This document shows positions 5,256 through 36,655 of a DNA stretch of 63,614 nucleotides, in pieces (the stretch's first letter is position 1; each line of letters opens with the position of its first letter). The translations under genes were made by a program, and so were the position numbers. The notes beneath the pieces are model-generated. The model saw only the letters and a list, made by a program, of their open reading frames with translations. It ran no database searches and was not told the DNA's origin. The stretch comes from Betaproteobacteria bacterium (GTDB taxonomy: Bacteria; Pseudomonadota; Gammaproteobacteria; Burkholderiales; SG8-39), in NCBI GenBank assembly GCA_032125995.1, contig JAQBBQ010000210.1:1-63614 (forward strand). The letters are read 5' to 3'.

Positions 5256-6314
5256 TTACTGCTTCGCCTCTTTCGCGAGCGTGAACACGGCGTCGAGCAC
5301 GCCCTGCGCGTCGAACTGGTCCTTGTTCTTAGCCACCCATTCGTCCCACACCGGCTTGCCAGCAATCTTGTGAAACCGTTCGAGTTCGGCCTCGGTGTAG
5401 ACGATTTTCTGCATCTTCTTCTCGAACATCGGCAGGTTCTTCTTGTCGGCCGCGTCGTAAACCTTGAAATAGACTGCGTTGACTTCCGGCCTCAGGTCTT
5501 CCAGCAATTTCTTGTACTGCGGCGGCAACTTGTTGTACGAGGTCTTGTTGAACGTAATCGGACACTCGCTGGTGCCGGGAGCGAGGTTGCTCGTATACCA
5601 GCTCGAGATCTCGGGCGTCTTGTAGGATTGATGCGCATAGGTGAACGGCAGCGACACGGCATCCATCGCACCGCGTTGCATCGTCGTGTAGATTTCGACC
5701 GCAGTCACCGTCATTTTGGTCGCACCGAGCTTCTCCATGGCCTCACCAATGCCGCCGCCCGCACGCACGCGCATGCCCTTCCAGTCCTCGAGCTTCAGTG
5801 GCGGCTTGCCTTTGCCCAGAAATTCGTACTGCGGCAGCAGCGTCGACATGTAGGCGATCGCATTCCAGCGGTCCATGTCGGCCTTCAGTGCCGGATGCTC
5901 GAAGAGCTTGTTGCGTACGTACGCCGACACCTTGAAGTCCGCGAGCGGCAGGAAGGGCAGCGAAAACACCATGAACGCCGGGTTCTTGCCGGGGGAATAG
6001 AAGTTGCAGAACGTGCCGGCGTCGAAGGCATTGATCTTCAGTCCGTCAAGGTGCTCCTTGGACTTGGACAGCGTCTCGCCATAGAAGATCTTCATCGTGA
6101 ACTTGCCGCCGGTTTCCTCGGCGAGACGTTTGGCGATGAGCTCCGGCCCCTCGGTGAACGCCCGTCGCTTGCCCCAGGTCGAGAATCTCCAGTTCACTTC
6201 CGGGCCATCGACTTTTGCCTGTGCAATGCTCGTTGCCGCATCCCAGGCCAGCAGCGACAGTGCGGCCGTTGCCACGACTGCCAGTTGTACCGATTGCAGT
6301 GATCGTCGCGTCAT
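5256..6314 (-). CDS. dctP: TRAP transporter substrate-binding protein (DctP family), substrate unknown
   Basis: 352 aa with an N-terminal signal peptide containing RR (MTRRSLQSVQLAVVATAALSLLA...AQA). It is first in the P-Q-M operon. Confidence 0.85.
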   Translation of the reverse strand: MTRRSLQSVQLAVVATAALSLLAWDAATSIAQAKVDGPEVNWRFSTWGKRRAFTEGPELIAKRLAEETGGKFTMKIFYGETLSKSKEHLDGLKINAFDAGTFCNFYSPGKNPAFMVFSLPFLPLADFKVSAYVRNKLFEHPALKADMDRWNAIAYMSTLLPQYEFLGKGKPPLKLEDWKGMRVRAGGGIGEAMEKLGATKMTVTAVEIYTTMQRGAMDAVSLPFTYAHQSYKTPEISSWYTSNLAPGTSECPITFNKTSYNKLPPQYKKLLEDLRPEVNAVYFKVYDAADKKNLPMFEKKMQKIVYTEAELERFHKIAGKPVWDEWVAKNKDQFDAQGVLDAVFTLAKEAKQ

Positions 6315-6451: not shown

Positions 6452-6471
6452 TACTGTATAAAAATACAGTA
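6452..6471. promoter_or_regulatory. LexA (SOS) box controlling imuA-imuB-dnaE2
   Basis: TACTGTATAAAAATACAGTA is a perfect 20-bp palindrome fitting CTGT-N8-ACAG, 21 nt upstream of the imuA ATG. It overlaps a possible sigma70 promoter, TTGCCA (6436..6441)-N17-TAAAAA. An AGGAGA RBS lies at 6476..6481. Confidence 0.88.
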
Positions 6472-6491: not shown

Positions 6492-7196
6492 ATGACCGTT
6501 CTTCCGACCGCGCTCGAGGCTGTCTTGCGGCGGCACCGGATCTGGCGCGGCGGTGCGGCTGCGCCGATGTCCGTAGCGGGACTGTCCACCGGGTTTGCCA
6601 TGCTCGACCGGCAGCTGCCGGGCGGTGGCTGGCCGAACGGGGCGTTGACGGAAATCCTCACATCGGCTGAGGGCGGTGGTGAGCTGCAGCTCCTGCTGCC
6701 GATGCTGACGAGGCTGTCTTCCACGGGACGGCGCATCGTCTGGCTTGCGCCGCCGCACCTCCCGTTTGCACCTGCACTGGTCGCTGCCGGCATCGATTTG
6801 CGCACGCTGGCGATTGTCCGCACGCCGAAGCGCCGCGACGTCCTGTGGGCGGCGGAACAGGTGCTGCGTGCGGGTGCCTGTCATGCGCTGGTCGCCTGGT
6901 GTGGCGATGTCCGCTATGCCGAGCTTCGACGGCTCGCAGTTGCGGCTGAAGCGAGCCGGGTGCTGGTCCTGTTGTTTCGTCCGCAACGCGTCGCACAGGA
7001 GTCGTCCCCGGCCTGCCTGCGCATCGCGCTCGAGCCGACGCAGGAGGGGCTTGATGTGCGCATTCTCAAGTGCCGCGGCCCGCGTGCAGGGGCACCGTTG
7101 CGTTTGCCTATCAATCGGCCTGTCCATGATTTGGATTGCTCTTCGTTTCCCGCAGCTCACGCTCGAGACCGTGTCGCGCAGCCATGCCCCGCATGA
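6492..7196 (+). CDS. imuA: Translesion-synthesis accessory protein ImuA (RecA/SulA-like)
   Basis: It is first in the LexA-boxed cassette. The string LPGGGWPNGALTEILTSAEGGGELQLLLPML is typical of ImuA. 234 aa. The tail overlaps imuB out of frame. Confidence 0.85.
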   Translation: MTVLPTALEAVLRRHRIWRGGAAAPMSVAGLSTGFAMLDRQLPGGGWPNGALTEILTSAEGGGELQLLLPMLTRLSSTGRRIVWLAPPHLPFAPALVAAGIDLRTLAIVRTPKRRDVLWAAEQVLRAGACHALVAWCGDVRYAELRRLAVAAEASRVLVLLFRPQRVAQESSPACLRIALEPTQEGLDVRILKCRGPRAGAPLRLPINRPVHDLDCSSFPAAHARDRVAQPCPA

Positions 7197-8565
7197 GCGG
7201 CGCAGCCTGCCTTGGGCGATTGTGGAAGATCGTCGGGTGCTCGCCTGCGATGCGCAGGCCGAGACGCTAGGCCTGCACGCCGGAATGGGGCTTGCTGCGG
7301 CGTGGGCACTCGCCCCGCGCCTGCAGGTACGCGAGCGGGACTCAGACGCCGAGTGCGCGGCGCTCGAAGGGATTGCCGCCTGGCTTTGCCGGTTTACGCC
7401 CGCGGTTTCGCTGGAACGCCCGCATGGCGTGCTGGCGGAAGTGCATGGCAGCCTGCGTCACTTCGGCGGTCTCCAGGCGCTCGTTTTGCAGATTCGTGAG
7501 GGTATTGCGGCGCTCGGATTCAGCGCACGTCTGGCGGTTGCGCCGAGTGCACAAGGGGCATGGCTGCTGACCTTTGGGGCGACGACGCCATTATTTGAGG
7601 ATTTCTCCGTTCTCAGGGATGCCCTCGCGCATTTGCCCGTCGAGGCCGTTTGCACGACAGACGAGGGCCGCGCGCTGCTGAACCGTATCGGGATCACGAC
7701 CGTGCGACAGCTTCTCCGACTGCCGCGCGCGGGTGTGACGCGGCGCTTCGGGCCGGCGCTTCTCGAACGCCTCGACCGCGCACTGGGGATGCAACCTGAT
7801 CCGCGCTGCTTTTTCGCCCCGCCCGAGCGCTTCGCAGCGGCGCTCGAACTGCCGGCCGAGGTCGAGCATGCCGAAGGCGTGCTGTTCGCCGCGCGCCGTC
7901 TGCTCCTACAGCTCGAGGGGCTGCTGACCGCACGCCAGTCGGGGGTACGGCAATTTCTCGTCATGCTCGAGCATCGAGGCCTGCCACCGACCCGGATCGA
8001 AGTGGGGCTGGCGTCCCCGGGACGTGAAGCCGGGCGTTTTGGTGAGCTTTTGCGCGAACGACTTGTCGGGCACAGGCTTGCCGCCCCCGTCGAGGCAATT
8101 CGCATCGAGGCGGACGCGTTTATCCCGTTCGAGGGCATGACCCTAGGGTTGTTCGGCGATGCACGCGAGGAGACGGAGGCGTGGGCACGGCTCGTCGAGC
8201 GCTTGCAGGCCCGGCTCGGCCAGGACGCCGTGTACGGCCTTGGTCTGAATGCGGACCACCGTCCTGAGCGCGCGTGGCGGCGGCTCGCGCCCGACGCAGC
8301 AAAACAGGGCCGAGAAGAAAATCTGTTCGGTCCGCGGCCGCTGTGGCTTGTCGAGCCGCCTCGATCGCTCGACGAGCGGGGCGGCGTTCCCCAGCAGAAC
8401 GGACCGCTCGCCCTGCTCGCGGGGCCCGAACGCATCGAATCCGGCTGGTGGGACGGCGCGCTGATCAGGCGCGACTATTTCATCGCCTGTGCGGCAGGTA
8501 CGACCTTGTTGTGGATCTATCGCGAACCGGGCGGCGGGTGGTATCTGCACGGGATCTTCGCTTGA
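7126..8565 (+). CDS. imuB: ImuB, catalytically inactive Y-family polymerase-like protein
   Basis: An ImuB-type N-terminus, MIWIALRFPQLTLETVS, starts at the ATG at 7126. The tracked ORF beginning at 6745 is an upstream open extension. It sits between imuA and dnaE2. Confidence 0.85.
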   Translation: MIWIALRFPQLTLETVSRSHAPHERRSLPWAIVEDRRVLACDAQAETLGLHAGMGLAAAWALAPRLQVRERDSDAECAALEGIAAWLCRFTPAVSLERPHGVLAEVHGSLRHFGGLQALVLQIREGIAALGFSARLAVAPSAQGAWLLTFGATTPLFEDFSVLRDALAHLPVEAVCTTDEGRALLNRIGITTVRQLLRLPRAGVTRRFGPALLERLDRALGMQPDPRCFFAPPERFAAALELPAEVEHAEGVLFAARRLLLQLEGLLTARQSGVRQFLVMLEHRGLPPTRIEVGLASPGREAGRFGELLRERLVGHRLAAPVEAIRIEADAFIPFEGMTLGLFGDAREETEAWARLVERLQARLGQDAVYGLGLNADHRPERAWRRLAPDAAKQGREENLFGPRPLWLVEPPRSLDERGGVPQQNGPLALLAGPERIESGWWDGALIRRDYFIACAAGTTLLWIYREPGGGWYLHGIFA

Positions 8566-17520: not shown

Positions 17521-18147
17521 TTACAGACTTTTGCCGTTTCGCACGATACCGACCGCGATTCCCTCGATCGCGAACGGATCGCGGCGCAAATCGACCTCGA
17601 TCGCTTCGAAATCCGGATTCTCTGGATGGAGCTGCACGACGTGGCCGCGGCGCCGAAAGCGTTTGACGGTCACCTCATCACCCAGTCGAGCGACGACCAT
17701 CTGGCCGCTGCGCGCTTCGTGCGTGCGATGGACCGCCAGCAGATCGCCCTCGAGTATCCCGGCGTCGCGCATCGACAGGCCGCGCACCCGGAGCAGATAG
17801 TCGGCGCGTGGCGTGAACAGGTTGGGATCGACCTGTAGCCGGGCCTGGACGTTTTCTTCGGCCAGGATCGGACTGCCGGCGGCGACCCTGCCGATCACCG
17901 GTAACTCCAGGGCGCGACCGAGGCGGACCGCGCTGCGCGAACGTACGCGGATGCCGCGCGAGGCGCCAGCGGCAATCTCGAGCGCGCCCTTGCGCTCGAG
18001 CGCGCGCAGGTGCTGTTCGGCCGCGTTGACCGAGCGAAAGCCCATTGAACGCGCGATCTCGGCGCGCGTCGGCGGGTAGCCGGTACTCTCGGTGAGCTCG
18101 CGAATCAGCTGCAAGATCTCAGACTGGCGTTCAGTCAGTGCGTCCAT
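17521..18147 (-). CDS. lexA: LexA repressor
   Basis: [15 protein letters not shown]...[15 protein letters not shown] (HTH), cleavage site VAAG, catalytic Ser in GLSMRDAGI, Lys in VTVKRF. Start is taken at the ATG at 18147. An in-frame ATG at 18162 is possible. The tracked 18225 start runs through the operator. Confidence 0.93.
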
Positions 18148-18172
18148 GGTGGCGGTGAGCATGCTTACAGTG

Positions 18173-18188
18173 CTGGGATTATATCCAG
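18173..18188. promoter_or_regulatory. Probable LexA autoregulatory box overlapping the lexA -10
   Basis: On the minus strand it reads CTGGATATAATCCCAG, which fits CTG-N10-CAG with G/C at the fourth positions instead of T/A. It contains a perfect TATAAT (plus-strand 18178..18183) and sits 26 nt upstream of the lexA ATG, in the spacer shared with the divergent acyl-CoA synthetase. Confidence 0.55.
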
Positions 18189-18293
18189 TATTTGCGCGAT
18201 GGCAAGGCCAGCCGGCGCCACACACTTGTGCCGCGGGCGCCCCTGCGGCATCGTTTGCCGTCCGCGAGTAACGACAACAGACCGGAGCGTTGG

Positions 18294-28279: not shown

Positions 28280-29161
28280 CTAGTTCGCGGCGCGTTTCAC
28301 GAAGCCCTCGAGCGAGACCGTATACCTGCCCACCCGCGCCAGATGTCGGATGCAATACTTGGTCGGATAAAAGCCGGCGGCTTTCCATGCCTGCGGCTGC
28401 TTGATGCGCACACACGTGCCGGGATTGCTGGCGAGATAGGCGTGGGTGATCATCGGTTCGTAGAAGATGACGTTCCCGTCATAGGCCCCGAAGATGAACG
28501 TATGCGTGAACTTGGGGCCGTTTTTCGCGAGTTCCGGCGATTTTGAATTGATCAGGTGATTGCCCATATCCGGCACCGCGGCATCGACACTGATGTGGTC
28601 GCGATGAACGTATTGGGCCGGAACCGGCTTGGTTGCCTTCTTGAAATCCTCGCAATCGATCAGTTCGCCGCAGCGGCCCGGCCGGATCCCCTTCACCACG
28701 GTTCTCTCGGCGATATAGAAGTGAAAATCGAAGTGCGGCGCGGCCCAGGGCGGCGGAGCCGGCGGAAAGTGGCCATGCGGATTCCAGTTGAGTCCCACCC
28801 ATTTGAACGGCAAGAGCGTCTTTGCTGCCTCGCCCTGCGGCAGCGCGAAGACGAGTTCGTGGTCGCCGATGCACTCGTGCGCATCGAGTTTCCCATTGCC
28901 GTCTTTATCGAAGCATCGGCTCGTGGCGTTCGGCGCCTTGGGCAAGCCTTCGAGCGCAGCGTTGTCCATGCTGACCCCCAGCGCGAGCGGATTGCCGTTC
29001 GCGTCGACGGCAACATAGACCCGCGCCCGCCCGTTGCCGAGCTTCTGGGAATTGGTCGCAATCACGTTTGGCTGCGCAGCCACTGCCACCGAGATTTCGC
29101 TGCCCAACATAGCCGTAGCCGCCACAGCGCAAATCAAACGCCATCCAAGCTTCCTCATCAT
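28280..29161 (-). CDS. Secreted protein of unknown function
   Basis: Signal peptide MMRKLGWRLICAVAATAMLGSEISVAVAAQ from the ATG at 29161. The mature part is Cys-containing and His-rich (NWNPHGHFPP...PHFDFHFY). I recognise no family. Confidence 0.6.
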   Translation of the reverse strand: MMRKLGWRLICAVAATAMLGSEISVAVAAQPNVIATNSQKLGNGRARVYVAVDANGNPLALGVSMDNAALEGLPKAPNATSRCFDKDGNGKLDAHECIGDHELVFALPQGEAAKTLLPFKWVGLNWNPHGHFPPAPPPWAAPHFDFHFYIAERTVVKGIRPGRCGELIDCEDFKKATKPVPAQYVHRDHISVDAAVPDMGNHLINSKSPELAKNGPKFTHTFIFGAYDGNVIFYEPMITHAYLASNPGTCVRIKQPQAWKAAGFYPTKYCIRHLARVGRYTVSLEGFVKRAAN

Positions 29162-29293
29162 GCCTCCTTTGAAGCGCCTCGCGTGTCCATCCTGAGGCGC
29201 GCCCGGTTTACGTTCGAGACCATCGCTTTTGCGCGATCCGGTGCCTTTGCCCCGTAACGCGAACACAAAGATTATGATCCAGTTCATCGGATT

Positions 29294-30380: not shown

Positions 30381-31289
30381 TCAGCGGTCGAGCGCAATAT
30401 CGTCGTAGGAACTCGGGTGCGAGACCGGCTCGATGTGAACGAATGTCGACGCGTTCGGCACCAGCGAGCGTATGCGCGATTCGATTTCCTCCGAAAGCTG
30501 GTGCGCGTGTTCGACCGTCCAGGCGTCGGGGACCAGCAGGTGAAACGAGATGAACCGCCGCGCGCCGGCATGTCGCGTGCGTAGGGCGTGGAACGACACG
30601 CCATAGCGGCGGCTATATTCGGTAAAGATGCGAGTGATTTCCGCGCGTTCTTCCTCCGGGATCGCGGGGTCCAGCAATCCGGCGACCGACCGGCGCATGA
30701 GTTTTACGCCCGTCCAGAGAATGTTTCCGGCGACCACGAGCGCGATCAGAGGATCGAGCCGCAGCCAGCCGGTCCAGGCGACGAGAACAACCCCGAGGAT
30801 TACGCCGACGGACGTCCAGACGTCGGTCAGCAGGTGGCGCGCGTCCGCTTCGAGCGCAATGCTGTGATACTGGCGCCCGGCTCGGAGTAGCAGGCGCGCT
30901 ACGCCAAAGTTCACCCCGGAGGCCGCGGCGGAGAGCACAATGGCAATCACGGGCAGGCTGATCGCTTGCGGCGCAACCAGTCGTGGGAAGGCGGCCCAGA
31001 CAATGCTTGCGGCGGCAACGACGATGAGCGCGCCTTCGGCCCCGCTGGAGAGATACTCGGCCTTCGACCGCCCAAAGGGGTGGGCCTCGTCCGGCGGCAT
31101 CGCGGAGAGCCGCAGCATCCACAGGGCAAGCAGGGCGGCGGCGAGATTGACAACCGACTCGAACGCGTCGGAGAGTAGGCCGACCGATCCGGTCAACCAC
31201 CATGCGAGCATTTTGAGCGTGATCGTCAGGACGGCCGCGGCGACCGAAAGCAGCGCGTAGCGCTCGAGCGTCCGGTCTGGTCCAGGCAT
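30381..31289 (-). CDS. Cation diffusion facilitator (CDF) divalent-metal efflux transporter
   Basis: 302 aa from the ATG at 31289. Six transmembrane segments with SDAFESVVN and LLTDVWTSVG metal-site strings, plus a C-terminal cytoplasmic domain. The tracked 469-aa ORF is an Arg-rich upstream extension. Confidence 0.85.
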   Translation of the reverse strand: MPGPDRTLERYALLSVAAAVLTITLKMLAWWLTGSVGLLSDAFESVVNLAAALLALWMLRLSAMPPDEAHPFGRSKAEYLSSGAEGALIVVAAASIVWAAFPRLVAPQAISLPVIAIVLSAAASGVNFGVARLLLRAGRQYHSIALEADARHLLTDVWTSVGVILGVVLVAWTGWLRLDPLIALVVAGNILWTGVKLMRRSVAGLLDPAIPEEERAEITRIFTEYSRRYGVSFHALRTRHAGARRFISFHLLVPDAWTVEHAHQLSEEIESRIRSLVPNASTFVHIEPVSHPSSYDDIALDR

Positions 31290-31333
31290 ATCGCGTGCTC
31301 TTCGGTTCCGTACGCGCCCACCCAGCGGCCGAG

Positions 31334-31364
31334 GCGTGCGTAAAACACGATGCACGACGCACGC
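31334..31364. promoter_or_regulatory. 8-15-8 inverted repeat upstream of the CDF gene (candidate operator)
   Basis: GCGTGCGT-N15-ACGCACGC, located 45-75 nt upstream of the CDF start codon. On the gene strand it is preceded by TTGCCA. Confidence 0.3.
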
Positions 31365-31462
31365 TGTGGCAACGTCGCGCGTCCGGGCGAACGCGTGCAG
31401 CGCAGTATATCGGCGCTCTCGCGCCTGCGTAGCGGCGTGGTCAGCGGCGGACGCTGTCGCTG

Positions 31463-32989
31463 CTAGCGGTCGAGCTCGACCTCGACGATCTCGGTTACCG
31501 GCAGCGCAGCGATCTCCTTGAGCTTTTCGCCACGTGCTCCGGTGGGGTCGAGTAACGTACCGACGCTGACATAGGTCGATGCGACAAAGAGCGACCGCCC
31601 GCCCTCGGCTTCGCGTCGAACGCCGAACTTGATGCGTTTGCGCGCGTCGACATCGAGCTTGCCAAGGAGATTCTTGGTTGCCCAGATTGCCCCGTAACGG
31701 GCGAAATCGGACAGCCGCGCGCCATGGTTGATGGTGTCGCCAAGCACGGTAAATTCGACGTGAGTCGCGGTCTGGAACGTGCCGAGCCATTCCTGGCCTT
31801 CATTGAGCCCGGTGTTCAGGTAGAGCTCGTTCGACCAGCCTTTGCGCAGCTGCCATGCCTTGCTGATGCGCCGCATGGCGTCGCGCATCTCGTGCGCGGC
31901 TGACAGCGCGTTCATCACGTAGTTGCAGTCCGGCTGGGGGAAAAAGTAGTACACCATGCCGTCGCCTGCGTGCTTGCCGTAGGTCCCGTAATAGCGCCGG
32001 AAAATCGGCTCCATGGCCGACCAGATCTGGTTGATAAGCTCAAAATACTCCTCCGGCGGCAATTCGGCGCAGATCTTTACCGAGTCCTGGAGATCCGCCA
32101 CGAGAACGGCGACATGGGTGAGCACCGGTAGGCGCTTACGGATCAGATCGCGGATGACCTCGTCACGCCGCGCGAGGAGCTCGAGCAGCCCGTCGCCGGC
32201 GGGCTCGCCCGGTACATAGGCGAACAGGATGCCCTCGCGAAACTGGGTGGCGTACACGGTGTGCACCCGGCAGTTGCCCTGTGCATCCGGCGCCATCACC
32301 GTCACCTGCGAGATGGCCTGATGGGGCAGGGGTTCGGCCTCTTGGTAGAGCCGTTCGAGAACCCCGCGCGTGTCTGCGGGGGCGTCCTTAGACAACGCGA
32401 TACACCCGCCTTTGGTCGAACGGCGCTTGGCAACCGAGAAGTGGAAGCGCAGCAACTCGTCACAGGGCCCGCATTGAACGCAGGCGCCGCCCCGATGCAG
32501 AAAACCGAAGATGTTGCGTGACTCGCTACTCGAGGGCAGGACGTCGAACCCACCGAGCACGCTGTGTCGCGCCGACTCGTTGTGCCAAATGATCTCAAAG
32601 TTGTAATTGACCATGTAGCAGGGGGTGGGCAGGTCGGCGAGCGTGACACGCAGCGCCGCTGTGCCTGGCGTGCTGGCGGGTGAGGGCGGCGCCTGGGTCG
32701 CCAATGGCGCCACGGCCTTGGCGTGGCCGCCCGAATCGGCGTCGCTGAGCCCCTGGACGGCGTAGCGGGCAACGATTTCCGCCATGCTCATTCCCTGGTC
32801 CTTCAGACGCTGGATTTCGTCGATTCGATTCAAAGCCTCCTCAGGGAAGTAGCCAAGGCGGCGTGCATCTCCATCATCTGGCGCTGGAAATCGAACGTCA
32901 GGCTTTGGGATCAATCCAAGGTTAATGTAATTGTTTAATGTTGCCCTGGAGATTCTTGTTTTTTCTATAATTTCTTTGCTACTTATCAT
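31463..32989 (-). CDS. MerR-type HTH / sensor domain / class III adenylate-guanylate cyclase fusion protein
   Basis: N-terminus: MISSKEIIEKTRISRATLNNYINLGLIPKP...EIQRLKDQGMSMAEI (MerR HTH). Middle: PAS-like segment with CVQCGPC. C-terminus: cyclase motifs VAVLVADLQDS, HAGDGMVYYF, LGDTINHGARL. I prefer the ATG at 32989 (GGAG 11 nt upstream). The tracked GTG at 33013 is also possible. Confidence 0.8.
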   Translation of the reverse strand: MISSKEIIEKTRISRATLNNYINLGLIPKPDVRFPAPDDGDARRLGYFPEEALNRIDEIQRLKDQGMSMAEIVARYAVQGLSDADSGGHAKAVAPLATQAPPSPASTPGTAALRVTLADLPTPCYMVNYNFEIIWHNESARHSVLGGFDVLPSSSESRNIFGFLHRGGACVQCGPCDELLRFHFSVAKRRSTKGGCIALSKDAPADTRGVLERLYQEAEPLPHQAISQVTVMAPDAQGNCRVHTVYATQFREGILFAYVPGEPAGDGLLELLARRDEVIRDLIRKRLPVLTHVAVLVADLQDSVKICAELPPEEYFELINQIWSAMEPIFRRYYGTYGKHAGDGMVYYFFPQPDCNYVMNALSAAHEMRDAMRRISKAWQLRKGWSNELYLNTGLNEGQEWLGTFQTATHVEFTVLGDTINHGARLSDFARYGAIWATKNLLGKLDVDARKRIKFGVRREAEGGRSLFVASTYVSVGTLLDPTGARGEKLKEIAALPVTEIVEVELDR

Positions 32990-33019
32990 TCGATATCCGC
33001 TCCGATCTTGCACCCAAGG

Positions 33020-33037
33020 TACTGTATATGGACAGTA
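33020..33037. promoter_or_regulatory. Perfect palindrome TACTGT-N6-ACAGTA just downstream of the putative -10 of the MerR-cyclase gene (candidate operator)
   Basis: TACTGTATATGGACAGTA is read directly. It resembles an SOS box but is 2 bp shorter than the canonical 20-mer. Confidence 0.45.
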
Positions 33038-33048
33038 TAATAACGCTC

Positions 33049-33078
33049 TATATACGGTCTAAATATCAATAAAGTCAA
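33049..33078 (-). promoter_or_regulatory. Putative sigma70 promoter of the MerR-cyclase gene
   Basis: The minus strand reads TTGACT (33078..33073)-N18-TATATA (33054..33049), inside a roughly 38% GC tract. The long spacer is reminiscent of MerR-type promoters but is unproven. Confidence 0.35.
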
Positions 33079-33089
33079 GGGTTTTTAAA

Positions 33090-33118
33090 CAGTACAAATA
33101 CTGACAGTTTGGACTGTC
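33090..33118. promoter_or_regulatory. Two abutting palindromes upstream of the putative -35: CAGTA-N4-TACTG and GACAGT-N4-ACTGTC
   Basis: CAGTACAAATACTG (33090..33103) and GACAGTTTGGACTGTC (33103..33118). With 33020..33037 this gives five ACAGT/ACTGT pentamers within 100 bp. Confidence 0.45.
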
Positions 33119-33151
33119 CAGAACTCGGCGGGAGCGAGATCGGATGATCGT

Positions 33152-36100
33152 TTAGACGAAGCGACGCTGGCGCTTCAATTCCGGCAGGCATTGCCGGATC
33201 CACTGGGCGGTCAGTTTTTCGGCCAGTGAATTTTGCTTTAAGCGCTCATTCAGCGCTCCAAAATCGACCCGATCGAGCGCTTGGTCCTGGTTGAAACAGG
33301 AAAACACGTAACTCGTCTCGCCGGTTACGGGGTCGTGGTGGGGTTGCAGGCACTGGGCGCAGATCTCCTTCATCATGCATTGCATCGGCGAGTTGATCGA
33401 GCCGATCGCGACATGCGCCGGTGACAGGTGGCTTTTGAGCACGTCGTGCCGTGCGCGGGCCACCGCGGCCATCATGCGATCCGAGCCAATCACGATGATT
33501 CGCTCGACCGCTTCGAGGGGAATCTCGGGCGTGCCGAGGCGCGCACTCGCATAGGCTTCCATCCCCTGGACCAGATTGCCGAGAAACGCGCGGTCCTGCG
33601 GACGACGGGGCGTAAAGCCGGGTTCCTCATCGCAGCACCAGACGACGACGTCCGCCGCGCGCTCGATGTCCTCGACCTTGTAGCGGTCGATCACCTTCTT
33701 GTAGCCCGCAAAATAGAGTACCCGCGTGCCGGCCGCGCGCAGCGCCTGCCCGATCGAAAACAGCACCGCGTTGCCGAGCCCACCGCCGACGAGAAGGGCA
33801 GTCGTGCCCGCTGGAATCTCGGTCGGGGCGCCGGTCGGCCCCATGAGAATCACGGGCTCGCCGGGCTGCAGCATTGCACACAGATCGCTCGACCCTCCCA
33901 TCTCGAGCACGATCGTCGAAATCAGACCTTGCGACGCGTCAACCCATGCGCCGGTGAGGGCGAGCCCTTCCATCTGCATCCGGGTACCGCGGGCGATCGG
34001 CGCCAGCGATTCGAAATTCTGCAAGCGGTAGAACTGGCCGGGCTGGAAGCGGCGCGCAGCCAGTGGCGCACGAACGACGATCTCGACGATGGTCGGCGTG
34101 AGGCGCCGCACCGCGTGTACCACCGCGCGCAAGTCCCGGTTCAACTGGGCCAGGAACGCCGCATCGTCGAGTGACGACTCGGGCGCGCGCTTCGCGAGCA
34201 CACGGCTGACGACCGGGTAGCCCTGTTTTGCCGAGCCCATGGCCTTGACGACGTTGCCGAAGTAGGAGGGATGGACGTCGCCGAAATAGCTCACAAAGCG
34301 GCCGTCCGGGTGCCGCGACAGCAACACCCGCACGTCCTCGGGTTTCGCGGTCGCGTACTCGGGCGTGACCGGTTGCCCCTGCTCATCACAGGCCGCGAAA
34401 TACTTGCCCTCGAGCGCGAAGTGCGCAGCATCCTCCCGCGCAAGGACCGTATTGGGTTGCGTTCCCGCCGCGACAAATACGGTGTGCGCCGCCAACCGAA
34501 CCTCGGCGCCAGGCTGCCAGCGGCCTTGGCTGTCGAGCGTCTGGTGGCGGAACTGCACGCCGCGCGTTGCGCCGTAGTTGTCGACCTCGACCGAAAGCGG
34601 CGCGAGGCCTTCGGCGAATACGACGCCTTCCTCGAGCGCCTTTTCCACTTCCTCGTGATTCAAGGTATAGGACGGGCTGTCGATCAGCCGCCGGCGATAG
34701 GCGAGCGTGACACCGCCCCAGCTGTGGAGCAGCTCGCTGATGCGAGGCCCGCGCCCCGCCGCCTGCGCGGTTGCGCGTTCGGCGCCCAGGGCGCGCGCAT
34801 GGGCGAGGAATTCCTCGGCAATTTCACGCTCCTGATCGTCCCAGGTCTCGCGGATTGCGTCCTCCCCGATGTCGTGCGTCAGGCGTTCGTAGCGCGACAA
34901 GAATTTCTCGACCTGAACCACGTAGTAGGCGAGCGATTCTGTGGCCGTGTCGATCGCGGTCAGGCCGCCGCCGACGACCACCACCGGCAACCGCAGCTGC
35001 ATGTTTGCGATCGAGTCCGCCTTGGCGGCGCCGGTCAGCTGCAAGGCCATGAGGAAATCGGACGCCGCGCGCACGCCGCGTGCGAGGCCGTGTGGAATGT
35101 CGAGCACGGTGGGCTTGCCGGCGCCGACGCAGAGCGCGACATGATCGAAGCCCATCGACCAGGCATCGTCGAGCGTGAGCGTGCCGCCGAAGCGCACGCC
35201 GCCGAACATCGCGAACCCATCCCGGCGCTCGAGTAACAGACGGATGATCTTGAGGAAATTCTTGTCCCAGCGCACGGTAATACCGTACTCGGCGACGCCG
35301 CCGAAACCGGCCATTACCCGGCTCTCCAATGGCTCGAACAGCGTGCCAACGTCGCGTATCGCTTCGAAGGGCACGCGGCGACCGTCCAGCGCCACGCCCG
35401 ACACCGGCGCAGGGAGTGGCTCGATCTTCAGGCCGTCGACGCCAACCACGCTGTGTCCATCGTTCATGAGATGGTGGGCGAGCGTGAAGCCGGCCGGACC
35501 CAAGCCGACCACCAGAACGCGCTTGCCACTTGCACTGCGCGGTAGCGGCCGACGCAGGTCGAGCGGGTTCCAGCGCGTCAGCAGAGCGTAAATTTCGAAT
35601 CCCCACGGCAGTTCGAGCACGTCCCTCAGGGTTCGCGTCTCTGCCTGAGGAATATTCACCGGCTCCTGCTTCTGGTAGATGCAGGATTTCATGCAGTCGT
35701 TGCAGATTCGATGCCCGGTCGCCGCGGCCATCGGGTTGTCGACGCAAATCACGGCGAGCGCAGACAGCGCGAGGCCCTGCGACTTGGCCATCTGAAATTC
35801 GGAAATGCGTTCCTCGAGCGGACAGCCGGCGAGCGGCACGCCGAACACCGTCTTGCGGTAACCCGTCGCGGGTGCCTTCTCCTTCAATCCCTTGGAGCAG
35901 GAGTCCTTGCCCTGCTGGTGACACCAGATGCAATAGTTCACCTCGTCGAGCGCGCCGACCAGATCGGTGCCGGCGTCGGTGAGCGCAAAGCCATTGCGCT
36001 GACGCCGGTGGTCATGCGCCAGGCTGTGGCGCGCAGTGCCGTCTGCCGAATCCGTGTGTAGCGGCACGAGCCACATGACGTCGATCTTGCGCGGCACCTT

Positions 36101-36655
36101 GAACAACACGCCGGCAGCGTTGCGTGCCCGGCCCGCGGGGGTCGTCGCTGCCCAGGCAGCGTAGCGCGCGGCGGCGTCGAGGCGTTCGGCGTTCGACGAT
36201 TCGTCCGCTTGCCATGCGGTCACCTGCTGCGCGAACGTCAATTCCGTGAACGGGGCGCCAAACCAATCCGCCAGTTGGCGCTCGAGCGCCGGCCCGTCGA
36301 CGGCGGCGGCTTCGGCCGGTTTGATCTTGTGCAGCGCGCGGCGCTGGACGAACAGCCGCTTGACCGAATGCAGCGGCGCCAGCGCGTGATGGCGTGCCGC
36401 AAGCGCCTGGACCTCGGACTCGATGCCGAACAGGCGTGCGAGAAAATCGTCCAGATGGGGTGCCATCGCGAGCAGCAGCGCGGCTTCGTCTTTGGCGCTC
36501 AGCGACGCCGGCGCCGCGCGCGCGGCGGCCAGCCGTGCTTCCAGATCAGCGTCGGCTTCGCCGAGAAACTCGATGAACCGCGCATCGAGCCGCGTCAAAC
36601 CGTCACGCGCGTAAAGATCGGGGAAGGCAAGCCCAAAGGCGAGGTGCGGCATCAT
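33152..36655 (-). CDS. Large multidomain flavoprotein: unknown N-terminal domain + GltD-like Fe-S/FAD/NAD(P)H oxidoreductase + PyrK/ferredoxin-reductase-like C-terminal module
   Basis: 1167 aa. Cys clusters CIWCHQQGKDSC and CNDCMKSC. Dinucleotide folds VLVVGLGPAGFTLAHHL and VVVVGGGLTAIDTATE. C-terminal FR-type module (RFQPGQFYRLQ, LLVGGGLGNAVLFS) ending with a CMMKEICAQC 2Fe-2S-like motif. Confidence 0.75.
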   Translation of the reverse strand: MMPHLAFGLAFPDLYARDGLTRLDARFIEFLGEADADLEARLAAARAAPASLSAKDEAALLLAMAPHLDDFLARLFGIESEVQALAARHHALAPLHSVKRLFVQRRALHKIKPAEAAAVDGPALERQLADWFGAPFTELTFAQQVTAWQADESSNAERLDAAARYAAWAATTPAGRARNAAGVLFKVPRKIDVMWLVPLHTDSADGTARHSLAHDHRRQRNGFALTDAGTDLVGALDEVNYCIWCHQQGKDSCSKGLKEKAPATGYRKTVFGVPLAGCPLEERISEFQMAKSQGLALSALAVICVDNPMAAATGHRICNDCMKSCIYQKQEPVNIPQAETRTLRDVLELPWGFEIYALLTRWNPLDLRRPLPRSASGKRVLVVGLGPAGFTLAHHLMNDGHSVVGVDGLKIEPLPAPVSGVALDGRRVPFEAIRDVGTLFEPLESRVMAGFGGVAEYGITVRWDKNFLKIIRLLLERRDGFAMFGGVRFGGTLTLDDAWSMGFDHVALCVGAGKPTVLDIPHGLARGVRAASDFLMALQLTGAAKADSIANMQLRLPVVVVGGGLTAIDTATESLAYYVVQVEKFLSRYERLTHDIGEDAIRETWDDQEREIAEEFLAHARALGAERATAQAAGRGPRISELLHSWGGVTLAYRRRLIDSPSYTLNHEEVEKALEEGVVFAEGLAPLSVEVDNYGATRGVQFRHQTLDSQGRWQPGAEVRLAAHTVFVAAGTQPNTVLAREDAAHFALEGKYFAACDEQGQPVTPEYATAKPEDVRVLLSRHPDGRFVSYFGDVHPSYFGNVVKAMGSAKQGYPVVSRVLAKRAPESSLDDAAFLAQLNRDLRAVVHAVRRLTPTIVEIVVRAPLAARRFQPGQFYRLQNFESLAPIARGTRMQMEGLALTGAWVDASQGLISTIVLEMGGSSDLCAMLQPGEPVILMGPTGAPTEIPAGTTALLVGGGLGNAVLFSIGQALRAAGTRVLYFAGYKKVIDRYKVEDIERAADVVVWCCDEEPGFTPRRPQDRAFLGNLVQGMEAYASARLGTPEIPLEAVERIIVIGSDRMMAAVARARHDVLKSHLSPAHVAIGSINSPMQCMMKEICAQCLQPHHDPVTGETSYVFSCFNQDQALDRVDFGALNERLKQNSLAEKLTAQWIRQCLPELKRQRRFV

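Follow-up and report, generated by a model that had tools for sequence, protein, structure and literature searches.

Can one protein make cyclic AMP (cAMP) and also control the DNA in front of its own gene? The question is raised by a locus of Betaproteobacteria bacterium, on a stretch of 63,614 nucleotides (contig JAQBBQ010000210.1) that was analysed as a whole and is called the window below. A preliminary description saw here a MerR-type DNA-binding domain, a sensor domain with a cysteine motif and a class III cyclase fused in one protein, upstream of a metal-efflux gene of the CDF family. The reading reached here, at a probability of roughly 60%, is that the gene product is a cytoplasmic one-component sensor adenylate cyclase which, in addition, acts on its own promoter as a repressor or at least as a regulator. 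The interval originally described, 30381..32989, spans two genes, that of the cyclase and that of the CDF protein.

31463..32989, minus strand: MerR-HTH/PAS-like/class III cyclase gene (open reading frame, homologue N-termini, exact 508-residue entry)

The uninterrupted open reading frame (ORF) covers 31463..33013 on the minus strand and encodes 516 amino acids (aa) when counted from a GTG. The gene start was set at the ATG at 32989 (MISSKE...), because the N-termini of homologues begin there and because the protein database lists exactly the 508-aa version. This makes the gene 31463..32989, or 508 aa plus the stop. Residue numbers follow the 516-aa GTG version throughout.

Pfam recognises both ends of the protein. 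MerR_1 (PF13411) matches aa 11-80 with 26.8 bits, above its gathering cut-off of 21.6, which settles the earlier concern that the score of the helix-turn-helix (HTH) might be insignificant. Guanylate_cyc (PF00211) matches aa 300-458 with 28.9 bits (gathering cut-off 21.9). The HTH string and the CVQCGPC motif that had been quoted are both found, and a single ORF with a MerR HTH, a middle sensor and a cyclase is thereby confirmed. Both Pfam scores barely exceed their thresholds, and each domain was therefore checked independently. The full-length AlphaFold2 (AF2) model has a predicted template modelling score (pTM) of only 0.50, too low for inter-domain geometry to be read from it.

Is the fusion real? 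Misassembly or a chance joining of two genes had been named as a possible explanation, and full-length homologues occur in many genomes. At E ≤ 0.001, 2,597 proteins match, the best 120 mostly aligned over 97-100% of the query, and at least 588 stretches (contigs, one genome per species) encode a relative. The fusion is therefore not an assembly artefact. The phyletic spread of polypeptides that join MerR to Guanylate_cyc, which the preliminary description had proposed to check, turns out to be wide and mostly betaproteobacterial. The best 80 loci are almost all from Betaproteobacteria, and their carriers include Gallionella, Methylophilaceae, Novimethylophilus, Polaromonas, Rhodocyclaceae, Sterolibacteriaceae and many Burkholderiales metagenome-assembled genomes. 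Counts of neighbouring genes given below per 80 loci refer to these best family loci, with ±10 kb where available.

What could the HTH bind? The 138 bp upstream of the gene are AT-rich and dense in ACTGT/ACAGT repeats. Promoter and first ~15 codons (32960-33150 in the window) are strikingly AT-rich in a genome of 63-66% GC, and upstream regions across the family average 41% GC. Aligned by eye, these regions share a 13-bp palindrome, TTRGAC-W-GTCYAA, which occurs in 2-4 copies over the -35/-10 region of the cyclase gene itself. The window has four candidate copies of this operator inside 94 bp (33028-33121):

33109..33121, no strand assigned: operator copy 1, TTGGACTGTCCAG, with one mismatch to TTRGACWGTCYAA
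33085..33097, no strand assigned: operator copy 2, TTAAACAGTACAA, its centre 13 bp upstream of the -35, the '-14' position of the family
33073..33078, minus strand: -35 hexamer TTGACT; 46 of the 75 family promoters share a conserved CTTGACA
33050..33062, no strand assigned: operator copy 3, TTAGACCGTATAT on the minus strand, three mismatches, overlapping the spacer and the -10
33049-33054: -10 TATATA, a consensus-level call
33028..33040, no strand assigned: operator copy 4, TTATACTGTCCAT on the minus strand, two mismatches, just downstream of the -10

The palindrome is concentrated in this promoter. The 75 upstream regions of 170 bp hold 148 palindromes with at most two mismatches, or 11.6 per kb. 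The flanking DNA of the family loci holds 44 in 1.11 Mb, or 0.04 per kb, which is ~290-fold rarer, and the six two-site clusters outside the 170 bp all lie just further upstream of the same cyclase gene. At least one site is found in 68 of the 75 promoters and at least two in 51. First-order composition resampling of each promoter gives 0.9 expected palindromes, and never more than 4 in 200 resamples, where 147 are observed; 134 equally AT-rich control windows contain one match. An unbiased count of 7-mers returns, as its top words, pieces of the motif and the -35 word CTTGACA. Site centres prefer -14, +11, +18/19, +34 and +40 relative to TTGAC, and neighbouring sites mostly follow one another at 21-24 bp, roughly two turns of the helix.

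Elsewhere in the 63.6 kb there is only one match with at most two mismatches, inside the IF-2 gene. A regulon within the window was not found either: the other operator-like matches are intragenic or at the chance level of three mismatches (16 found against 11.2 expected overall).

A variant spacing was seen at loci L006, L008-L011, L013 and L018-L022. There the half-sites are 4 bp apart instead of 1 (TTATAC-AATT-GTCTAA), and they sit within the spacer between TTGACA and the -10.

On the simplest interpretation, the HTH of the protein would bind the palindromes of its own promoter. DNA binding by the protein is in this way supported indirectly, with its own promoter as the probable target. The domain that would do so is the following:

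32756..32989, minus strand: MerR-type winged HTH, aa 9-86 (Pfam MerR_1, AF2 topology, match to MerR 4ua1 in the PDB)

Its recognition helix, ISRATLNNYI, is invariant in a 30-sequence alignment (S22, R23 and T25-I30), and it is nearly unchanged in members with only 28-35% overall identity. In members less than 45% identical overall, aa 20-33 still show 76% identity, where the cyclase domain has 46% and the PAS-like domain 26%. Three distant members with this canonical helix (28-31% identity) and with unrelated neighbourhoods have TTATAC-W-GTATAA sites beside a TTGACA. Member P0199, in which the helix is rewritten to ISLPTLKEYI, has no ACWGT in the 263 bp upstream.

Another regulator, such as LexA or a global factor, might occupy the palindromes instead, the HTH of the protein then having other targets or none. 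The ACTGT/ACAGT cores do resemble LexA half-sites, and the window encodes a LexA (17521-18225, minus strand). At locus L081 (2790-2970), with a member 29% identical, the packed sites form two perfect CTGT-N8-ACAG arrangements, TACTGTATAAATATACAGTA, which are indistinguishable from the LexA boxes of gamma- and betaproteobacteria. The spacing nevertheless led to the rejection of an SOS reading: the promoter in the window has CTGT-N6-ACAG, only 5 of the 75 promoters show the N8 form, and the prevailing layout is palindromic, 6-1-6, with either base at its centre. The lexA gene has its own box, TACTGGATATAATCCCAGCA, just upstream at about 18170-18190, and the sole perfect CTGT-N8-ACAG of the window, CTGTATAAAAATACAG, lies at 6454-6469, between ORFs 5256-6314 (minus strand) and 6745-8565 (plus strand); both are away from the cyclase promoter. 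The scarcity of the motif in flanking DNA, and the position of the outside clusters just upstream of the same gene, also argue against a foreign regulator, as does the joint persistence of gene, motif and invariant recognition helix in very distant lineages. Occupation by another regulator is held to be unlikely.

Is the protein then a MerR regulator in the usual sense? The HTH is of MerR type. Its AF2 topology is beta-a1-a2-hairpin-a3-a4 with a long beta-hairpin wing, and by sequence its nearest PDB entry is the mercury regulator MerR (4ua1, aa 14-82, E 0.077), compared to which the wing is 8 residues longer. What follows the HTH is something else:

32639..32755, minus strand: disordered Ala/Pro-rich linker, aa 87-125 (predicted local distance difference test, pLDDT, 27-49; length and sequence variable; identity 15-27%)

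This stretch of ~40 residues, predicted to be disordered, occupies the place of the MerR coiled-coil helix. No coiled-coil alpha5 was found directly after the HTH, where the AF2 model has a pLDDT below 50 and the alignment is variable and rich in Ala and Pro. Nor does the promoter show the single dyad in a 19-20 bp spacer that is typical for MerR; it has 2-4 palindromes upstream of, within and downstream of the core promoter. The -35/-10 spacers are ~16-18 bp as counted by hand and eye in the Gallionella group, in group 2 and in the window. Features of the metal-sensing MerR subgroup (MerR, ZntR, CueR) are missing as well: the cysteines sit in the PAS-like domain and in one subclade, adjacency to CDF is not conserved, and neither alignment nor AF2 reveals the C-terminal metal loop of MerR proteins. 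The earlier assignment thus stands for the HTH and falls for the rest, given the missing coiled-coil and single-dyad promoter: this is not a canonical MerR. A search for proteins with the HTH alone gave just 14 candidates, all fragments, and says nothing about other architectures using this HTH.

Is the enzyme likely to work? Two features make up the C-terminal part of the protein:

31634..32125, minus strand: class IIIb-type adenylate cyclase domain, aa 297-460 (Pfam, Foldseek, residue alignment, invariance)
31466..31633, minus strand: conserved beta-rich C-terminal extension, aa 461-516 (alignment, AF2)

The cyclase fold matches CyaB (3r5g), CyaC (1wc0) and Cya2 (2w01) with target template modelling (TM) scores of 0.76-0.80 in Foldseek, and phmmer finds Pseudomonas aeruginosa CyaB with an E-value of 7e-12. 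D307 and D351 align with the metal-binding Asp residues of P. aeruginosa CyaB and Spirulina CyaC, N429 and R433 with the transition-state Asn/Arg pair of these enzymes, and K347 and T422 with their class IIIb adenine-recognition Lys/Thr pair. Position 422 is Thr in the window protein and Ala in most of the family. The Lys347/Thr422 pair predicts cAMP as the product. The preliminary description had called the cyclase apparently competent on account of its metal Asp residues and Asn/Arg pair, and with all catalytic residues present it does appear so.

The protein could also be primarily a transcription factor, its cyclase domain serving for dimerisation or nucleotide binding without being an enzyme. 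What suggests this is the far end of the family. Only 13 of 43 members less than 45% identical keep the Asp/Asp/Asn/Arg plus Lys set, a count that depends on the alignment, and several distant members have no Pfam cyclase match; the HTH is kept by all, and the operator by those examined. For the window protein the idea is very unlikely, however. Its catalytic residues are all intact, as they are in 120 of 121 members at least 45% identical, and among these members the cyclase is the most conserved domain, at 75-87% identity, which is the pattern expected of an active enzyme. The pseudo-cyclase candidates are distant members (P0125-P0270, less than 45% identical; loci L085, L088 and L089). Such members, poor in catalytic residues, may form a pseudo-cyclase branch that works as a transcription factor only.

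What does the middle of the protein sense? The features in question are these:

32204..32638, minus strand: divergent PAS-like sensor with an enlarged helical insert, aa 126-270 (AF2 of aa 118-299 with pLDDT 80, Foldseek)
32462..32482, minus strand: CVQCGPC, C178/C181/C184, in a loop of the PAS-like helical insert (165-sequence alignment)
32270..32272, minus strand: C248, the fourth Cys, a candidate metal or iron-sulphur (Fe-S) ligand (co-occurs with the triad)
32126..32203, minus strand: conserved linker helix from sensor to cyclase, aa 271-296, LLELLARRDEVIRDLIRKRLP (conserved columns, identity 63-79%)

The segment was modelled apart, as aa 118-299, because the cyclase dominated the fold search with the full-length protein. 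All 50 listed PDB matches in Foldseek are PAS, LOV, PYP or phytochrome-type sensor domains. These matches are weak: the best has an E-value of 5e-3 and a probability of 0.98, and the range is E 5e-3 to 3e-2 with TM scores of 0.3-0.5. Pfam gives no PAS match for the segment at E ≤ 1, and its profile finds nothing among PDB sequences. One distant member weakly matches the PAS-like MmyB ligand-binding domain (LBD, PF17765). The PAS-like nature claimed earlier therefore holds weakly at the level of the fold, and lacks support from Pfam PAS models or PDB sequences. AF2 places the sensor-cyclase linker helix at aa 274-292, with low confidence.

The sensor appears to be private to the family. Only 229 clusters match the profile of the domain among 1.84 billion cluster representatives, and in the full-length matches (~500-567 aa) its position is constant, at ~aa 100-340. 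The other matches are shorter; most look like fragments or like versions with a shorter N-terminus. The domain is therefore specific to the MerR-HTH/cyclase architecture.

The CxxCxxC motif is present, at aa 178-184, as had been noted, but a role as the sensor feature of the family is not supported, because it is restricted to one subclade. In a 165-sequence alignment, C178, C181, C184 and C248 are found in all 20 sequences at least 65% identical to the window protein, and are missing from the sister clade (64-65% identity) and from almost everything else. In sister clade P0022-27, C248 is replaced by R or P. That the four cysteines are gained or lost together suggests one ligand site, in the subclade of the window only. 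Fe-S clusters held by cysteines in PAS domains are documented sensors in NreB and OrpR (PMC13478379, PMC8359166).

Does the protein control the CDF gene? The preliminary description held it to be a metal- or redox-sensing MerR-type regulator of that neighbour, which would make cAMP or cyclic GMP as well. The neighbour exists as described:

30381..31289, minus strand: CDF (MntE/FieF-like) efflux gene, 302 aa (Cation_efflux and ZT_dimer in Pfam/NCBIfam, MntE-like models best)

Its start is the ATG at 31289, 173 bp downstream of the cyclase gene on the same strand. The adjacency is kept at L001, L002 and L093/L094, and the proteins there have the Cys motif, which is what would speak for such control. 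Within 10 kb, though, a CDF homologue is found at 2 of 80 loci, L001 (88% identity) and L002 (81%), and is missing at the other 78. These two share synteny throughout the block (oxidoreductase, PhzF, GNAT, nitroreductase), and by tblastn they alone among the 80 also have the 1167-aa oxidoreductase and the PhzF-like gene. Another close relative, P0011 (80% identity), keeps the order of at least 11 genes, the CDF gene among them. Since the relatives that have CDF are fully syntenic, the adjacency is ordinary gene-order conservation and adds no information. Two further proteins with the Cys motif have other neighbours and no CDF: P0014 (69%) is preceded by a VWA-like gene and followed by a convergent kinase-like fragment, and P0018 (66%) has a PIN toxin upstream and 200 non-coding bp downstream.

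The region between cyclase and CDF contains no copy of the family operator. A weak terminator-like hairpin does lie there, at 31352-31364, a stem followed by GTGTTTT. The inverted repeat at 31334-31364, GCGTGCGT...ACGCACGC, proposed earlier as a binding site, overlaps this hairpin and has no similarity to the operator. The protein itself is without the MerR coiled-coil and C-terminal metal loop. Regulation of CDF by the protein is thus highly improbable, and the functional link is not supported: CDF is confined to syntenic relatives at 80% identity or more. It is a lineage-specific neighbour, judged to be outside the system and no target, and a misleading guilt-by-association tie to metal efflux is removed.

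No universal partner was found among neighbours, either by tblastn of the window neighbours against the 80 loci or by de novo clustering of ORFs. Subgroups do have neighbours of their own, among others a PAS-GGDEF-EAL protein, an ABC-F ATPase and an ADP-forming acyl-CoA synthetase. At L038:11587-13347, L047:11568-13328 and ~10 other Gallionella-type loci, the PAS-GGDEF-EAL gene follows the cyclase homologue in the same orientation and begins 3-33 bp behind its stop codon. The two genes are probably co-transcribed there, which suggests a wired link between cAMP and cyclic di-GMP signalling in the Gallionella-type lineage. Other signalling neighbours are a cyclase and FHA gene at L016, and a response-regulator HD-GYP gene with a hybrid kinase at L088.

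Two further proteins near the locus were annotated. Directly upstream, at 33152-36655 on the minus strand, a 1167-aa protein matches RP005_N, Pyr_redox_2 and weakly Fer4_20, and looks like a flavoprotein fusion resembling the glutamate synthase small subunit. Its gene ends 138 bp before the GTG at 33013 and 162 bp before the ATG, and is syntenic at L001, L002, L090 and L093. The gene at 28280-29287, on the minus strand, encodes 335 aa with a pair of TTHB210-like repeats and one EF-hand-like loop; none of the 80 loci, not even the otherwise syntenic L001 and L002, has a homologue at E ≤ 1e-5.

How might the parts work together? The protein would dimerise by its cyclase domain and probably by its PAS-like domain as well. 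The PAS-like domain would take the signal, which the conserved linker helix at aa 271-296 would relay to the cyclase dimer; DNA binding might respond to it too. In the subclade of the window the signal would most likely be redox, oxygen or metal, through an Fe-S cluster or a bound metal at C178/C181/C184/C248. The two HTH heads, on their flexible tethers, would occupy the palindromes and so act back on transcription. This regulation is more likely to be negative, because the sites overlap the spacer and the start region. Occupancy of the -35/-10 spacer and the start site would then repress the gene, and the level of the enzyme would be under feedback control, as in the trigger enzymes PutA, BirA and NadR.

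A more elaborate version makes DNA occupancy itself part of the signalling. The heads would dock on the phased array, with its steps of 21-24 bp, and set the geometry of the cyclase dimer. Synthesis of cAMP might be switched by DNA occupancy, or occupancy by the PAS signal and ATP. The protein would further be a global regulator with a wider regulon, and the distant members that have lost catalytic residues but keep the HTH would be the transcription-factor-only end of the same range. This version is distinctly unlikely.

Some points weigh against an autoregulating sensor cyclase. The operator scan covered only the window and the family loci (±10 kb). The assignment of the palindromes to the HTH consists of co-occurrence and one negative case of covariation. 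This covariation is not sharp: P0219, P0270 and P0223, which have TLH for TLN in the helix, keep ACWGT cores with altered flanks. Promoter calls are at consensus level, and the scan tool favoured a different, weaker pair of hexamers. The sign of regulation is taken from site positions only. The PAS assignment is weak, at TM 0.3-0.5 and with no Pfam PAS match.

Class III cyclases are the main source of cAMP in most bacteria outside the enterics. Little is known of what governs the level and input of these cyclases in environmental Betaproteobacteria, among them iron oxidisers (Gallionella), methylotrophs and Rhodocyclales. The family offers a compact and testable case, a second-messenger synthase with its own DNA-binding head and a precisely defined operator. 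It is a candidate for a new class of trigger enzyme, with a ready-made cis element for binding and reporter assays. Its members also range from active cyclases to apparent pseudo-cyclases, and from sensors without the cysteines to sensors with all four, a natural series in which the coupling of sensor, enzyme and DNA binding can be studied.

The combination had been put forward as uncharacterised. As far as experiments go, this is supported: a search of full-text literature found no paper on a MerR-cyclase fusion and no experimental study. As an annotation the architecture does already exist in databases, where the Joint Genome Institute (JGI) names some members 'class 3 adenylate cyclase/DNA-binding transcriptional MerR regulator'.

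Among known systems, CyaB (3r5g) and CyaC (1wc0) share with the window protein the catalytic fold, the catalytic residues and a cytoplasmic sensor N-terminal to the cyclase. Identity is 17-19%, and the window protein adds a C-terminal extension of ~55 aa. To our knowledge there is no class IIIb cyclase with a DNA-binding domain or an autoregulatory operator, and the literature search found none.

CarH/LitR proteins have a MerR-type winged HTH on a sensor without the canonical coiled-coil, oligomerise through the C-terminal part, and repress from operators that overlap the promoter. The window protein is like them in having a MerR-type head on a sensor part that would provide oligomerisation, but it is not a member. 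The CarH/LitR sensor binds vitamin B12, has no enzymatic output and goes with other operators, whereas the window protein has no B12-binding Pfam match.

The mycobacterial proteins Rv0386, Rv1358 and Rv2488c combine a class III cyclase with an HTH, in the order cyclase, NB-ARC ATPase, TPR and C-terminal LuxR-type HTH. They resemble the window protein in joining these two functions in one polypeptide. They are much larger, and have neither a MerR HTH nor a PAS-like domain.

For NreB and OrpR the likeness is in the Cys cluster of a cytoplasmic PAS-type domain, which in these proteins senses oxygen, redox or sulfide (PMC13478379, PMC8359166). In the window subclade the cofactor is only a candidate, there is no detectable sequence similarity to either, and both the Cys spacing (CxxCxxC plus a distant Cys) and its place in the helical insert are different.

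The trigger enzymes PutA, BirA, NadR and archaeal RbkR unite catalysis and DNA-binding regulation in a single polypeptide (PMC6978683, PMC5397151). These typically control few promoters, genes of their own pathway included (PMC6978683, PMC5397151). The window protein may resemble them: it has enzyme and HTH domains in one protein, with a dedicated and conserved putative operator in its own promoter. Trigger enzymes are metabolic, however, and sense their own substrate or product, whereas the window protein would make a second messenger and has a separate PAS-like sensor. The DNA-binding folds also differ, being ribbon-helix-helix or the BirA-type winged HTH in trigger enzymes and the MerR-type HTH here. 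HTH-bearing cyclases of the Rv0386 type and enzyme-repressors were thus known already. What is new is a MerR-type head, a PAS-like sensor and a class III cyclase in one protein, with a dedicated operator throughout the family.

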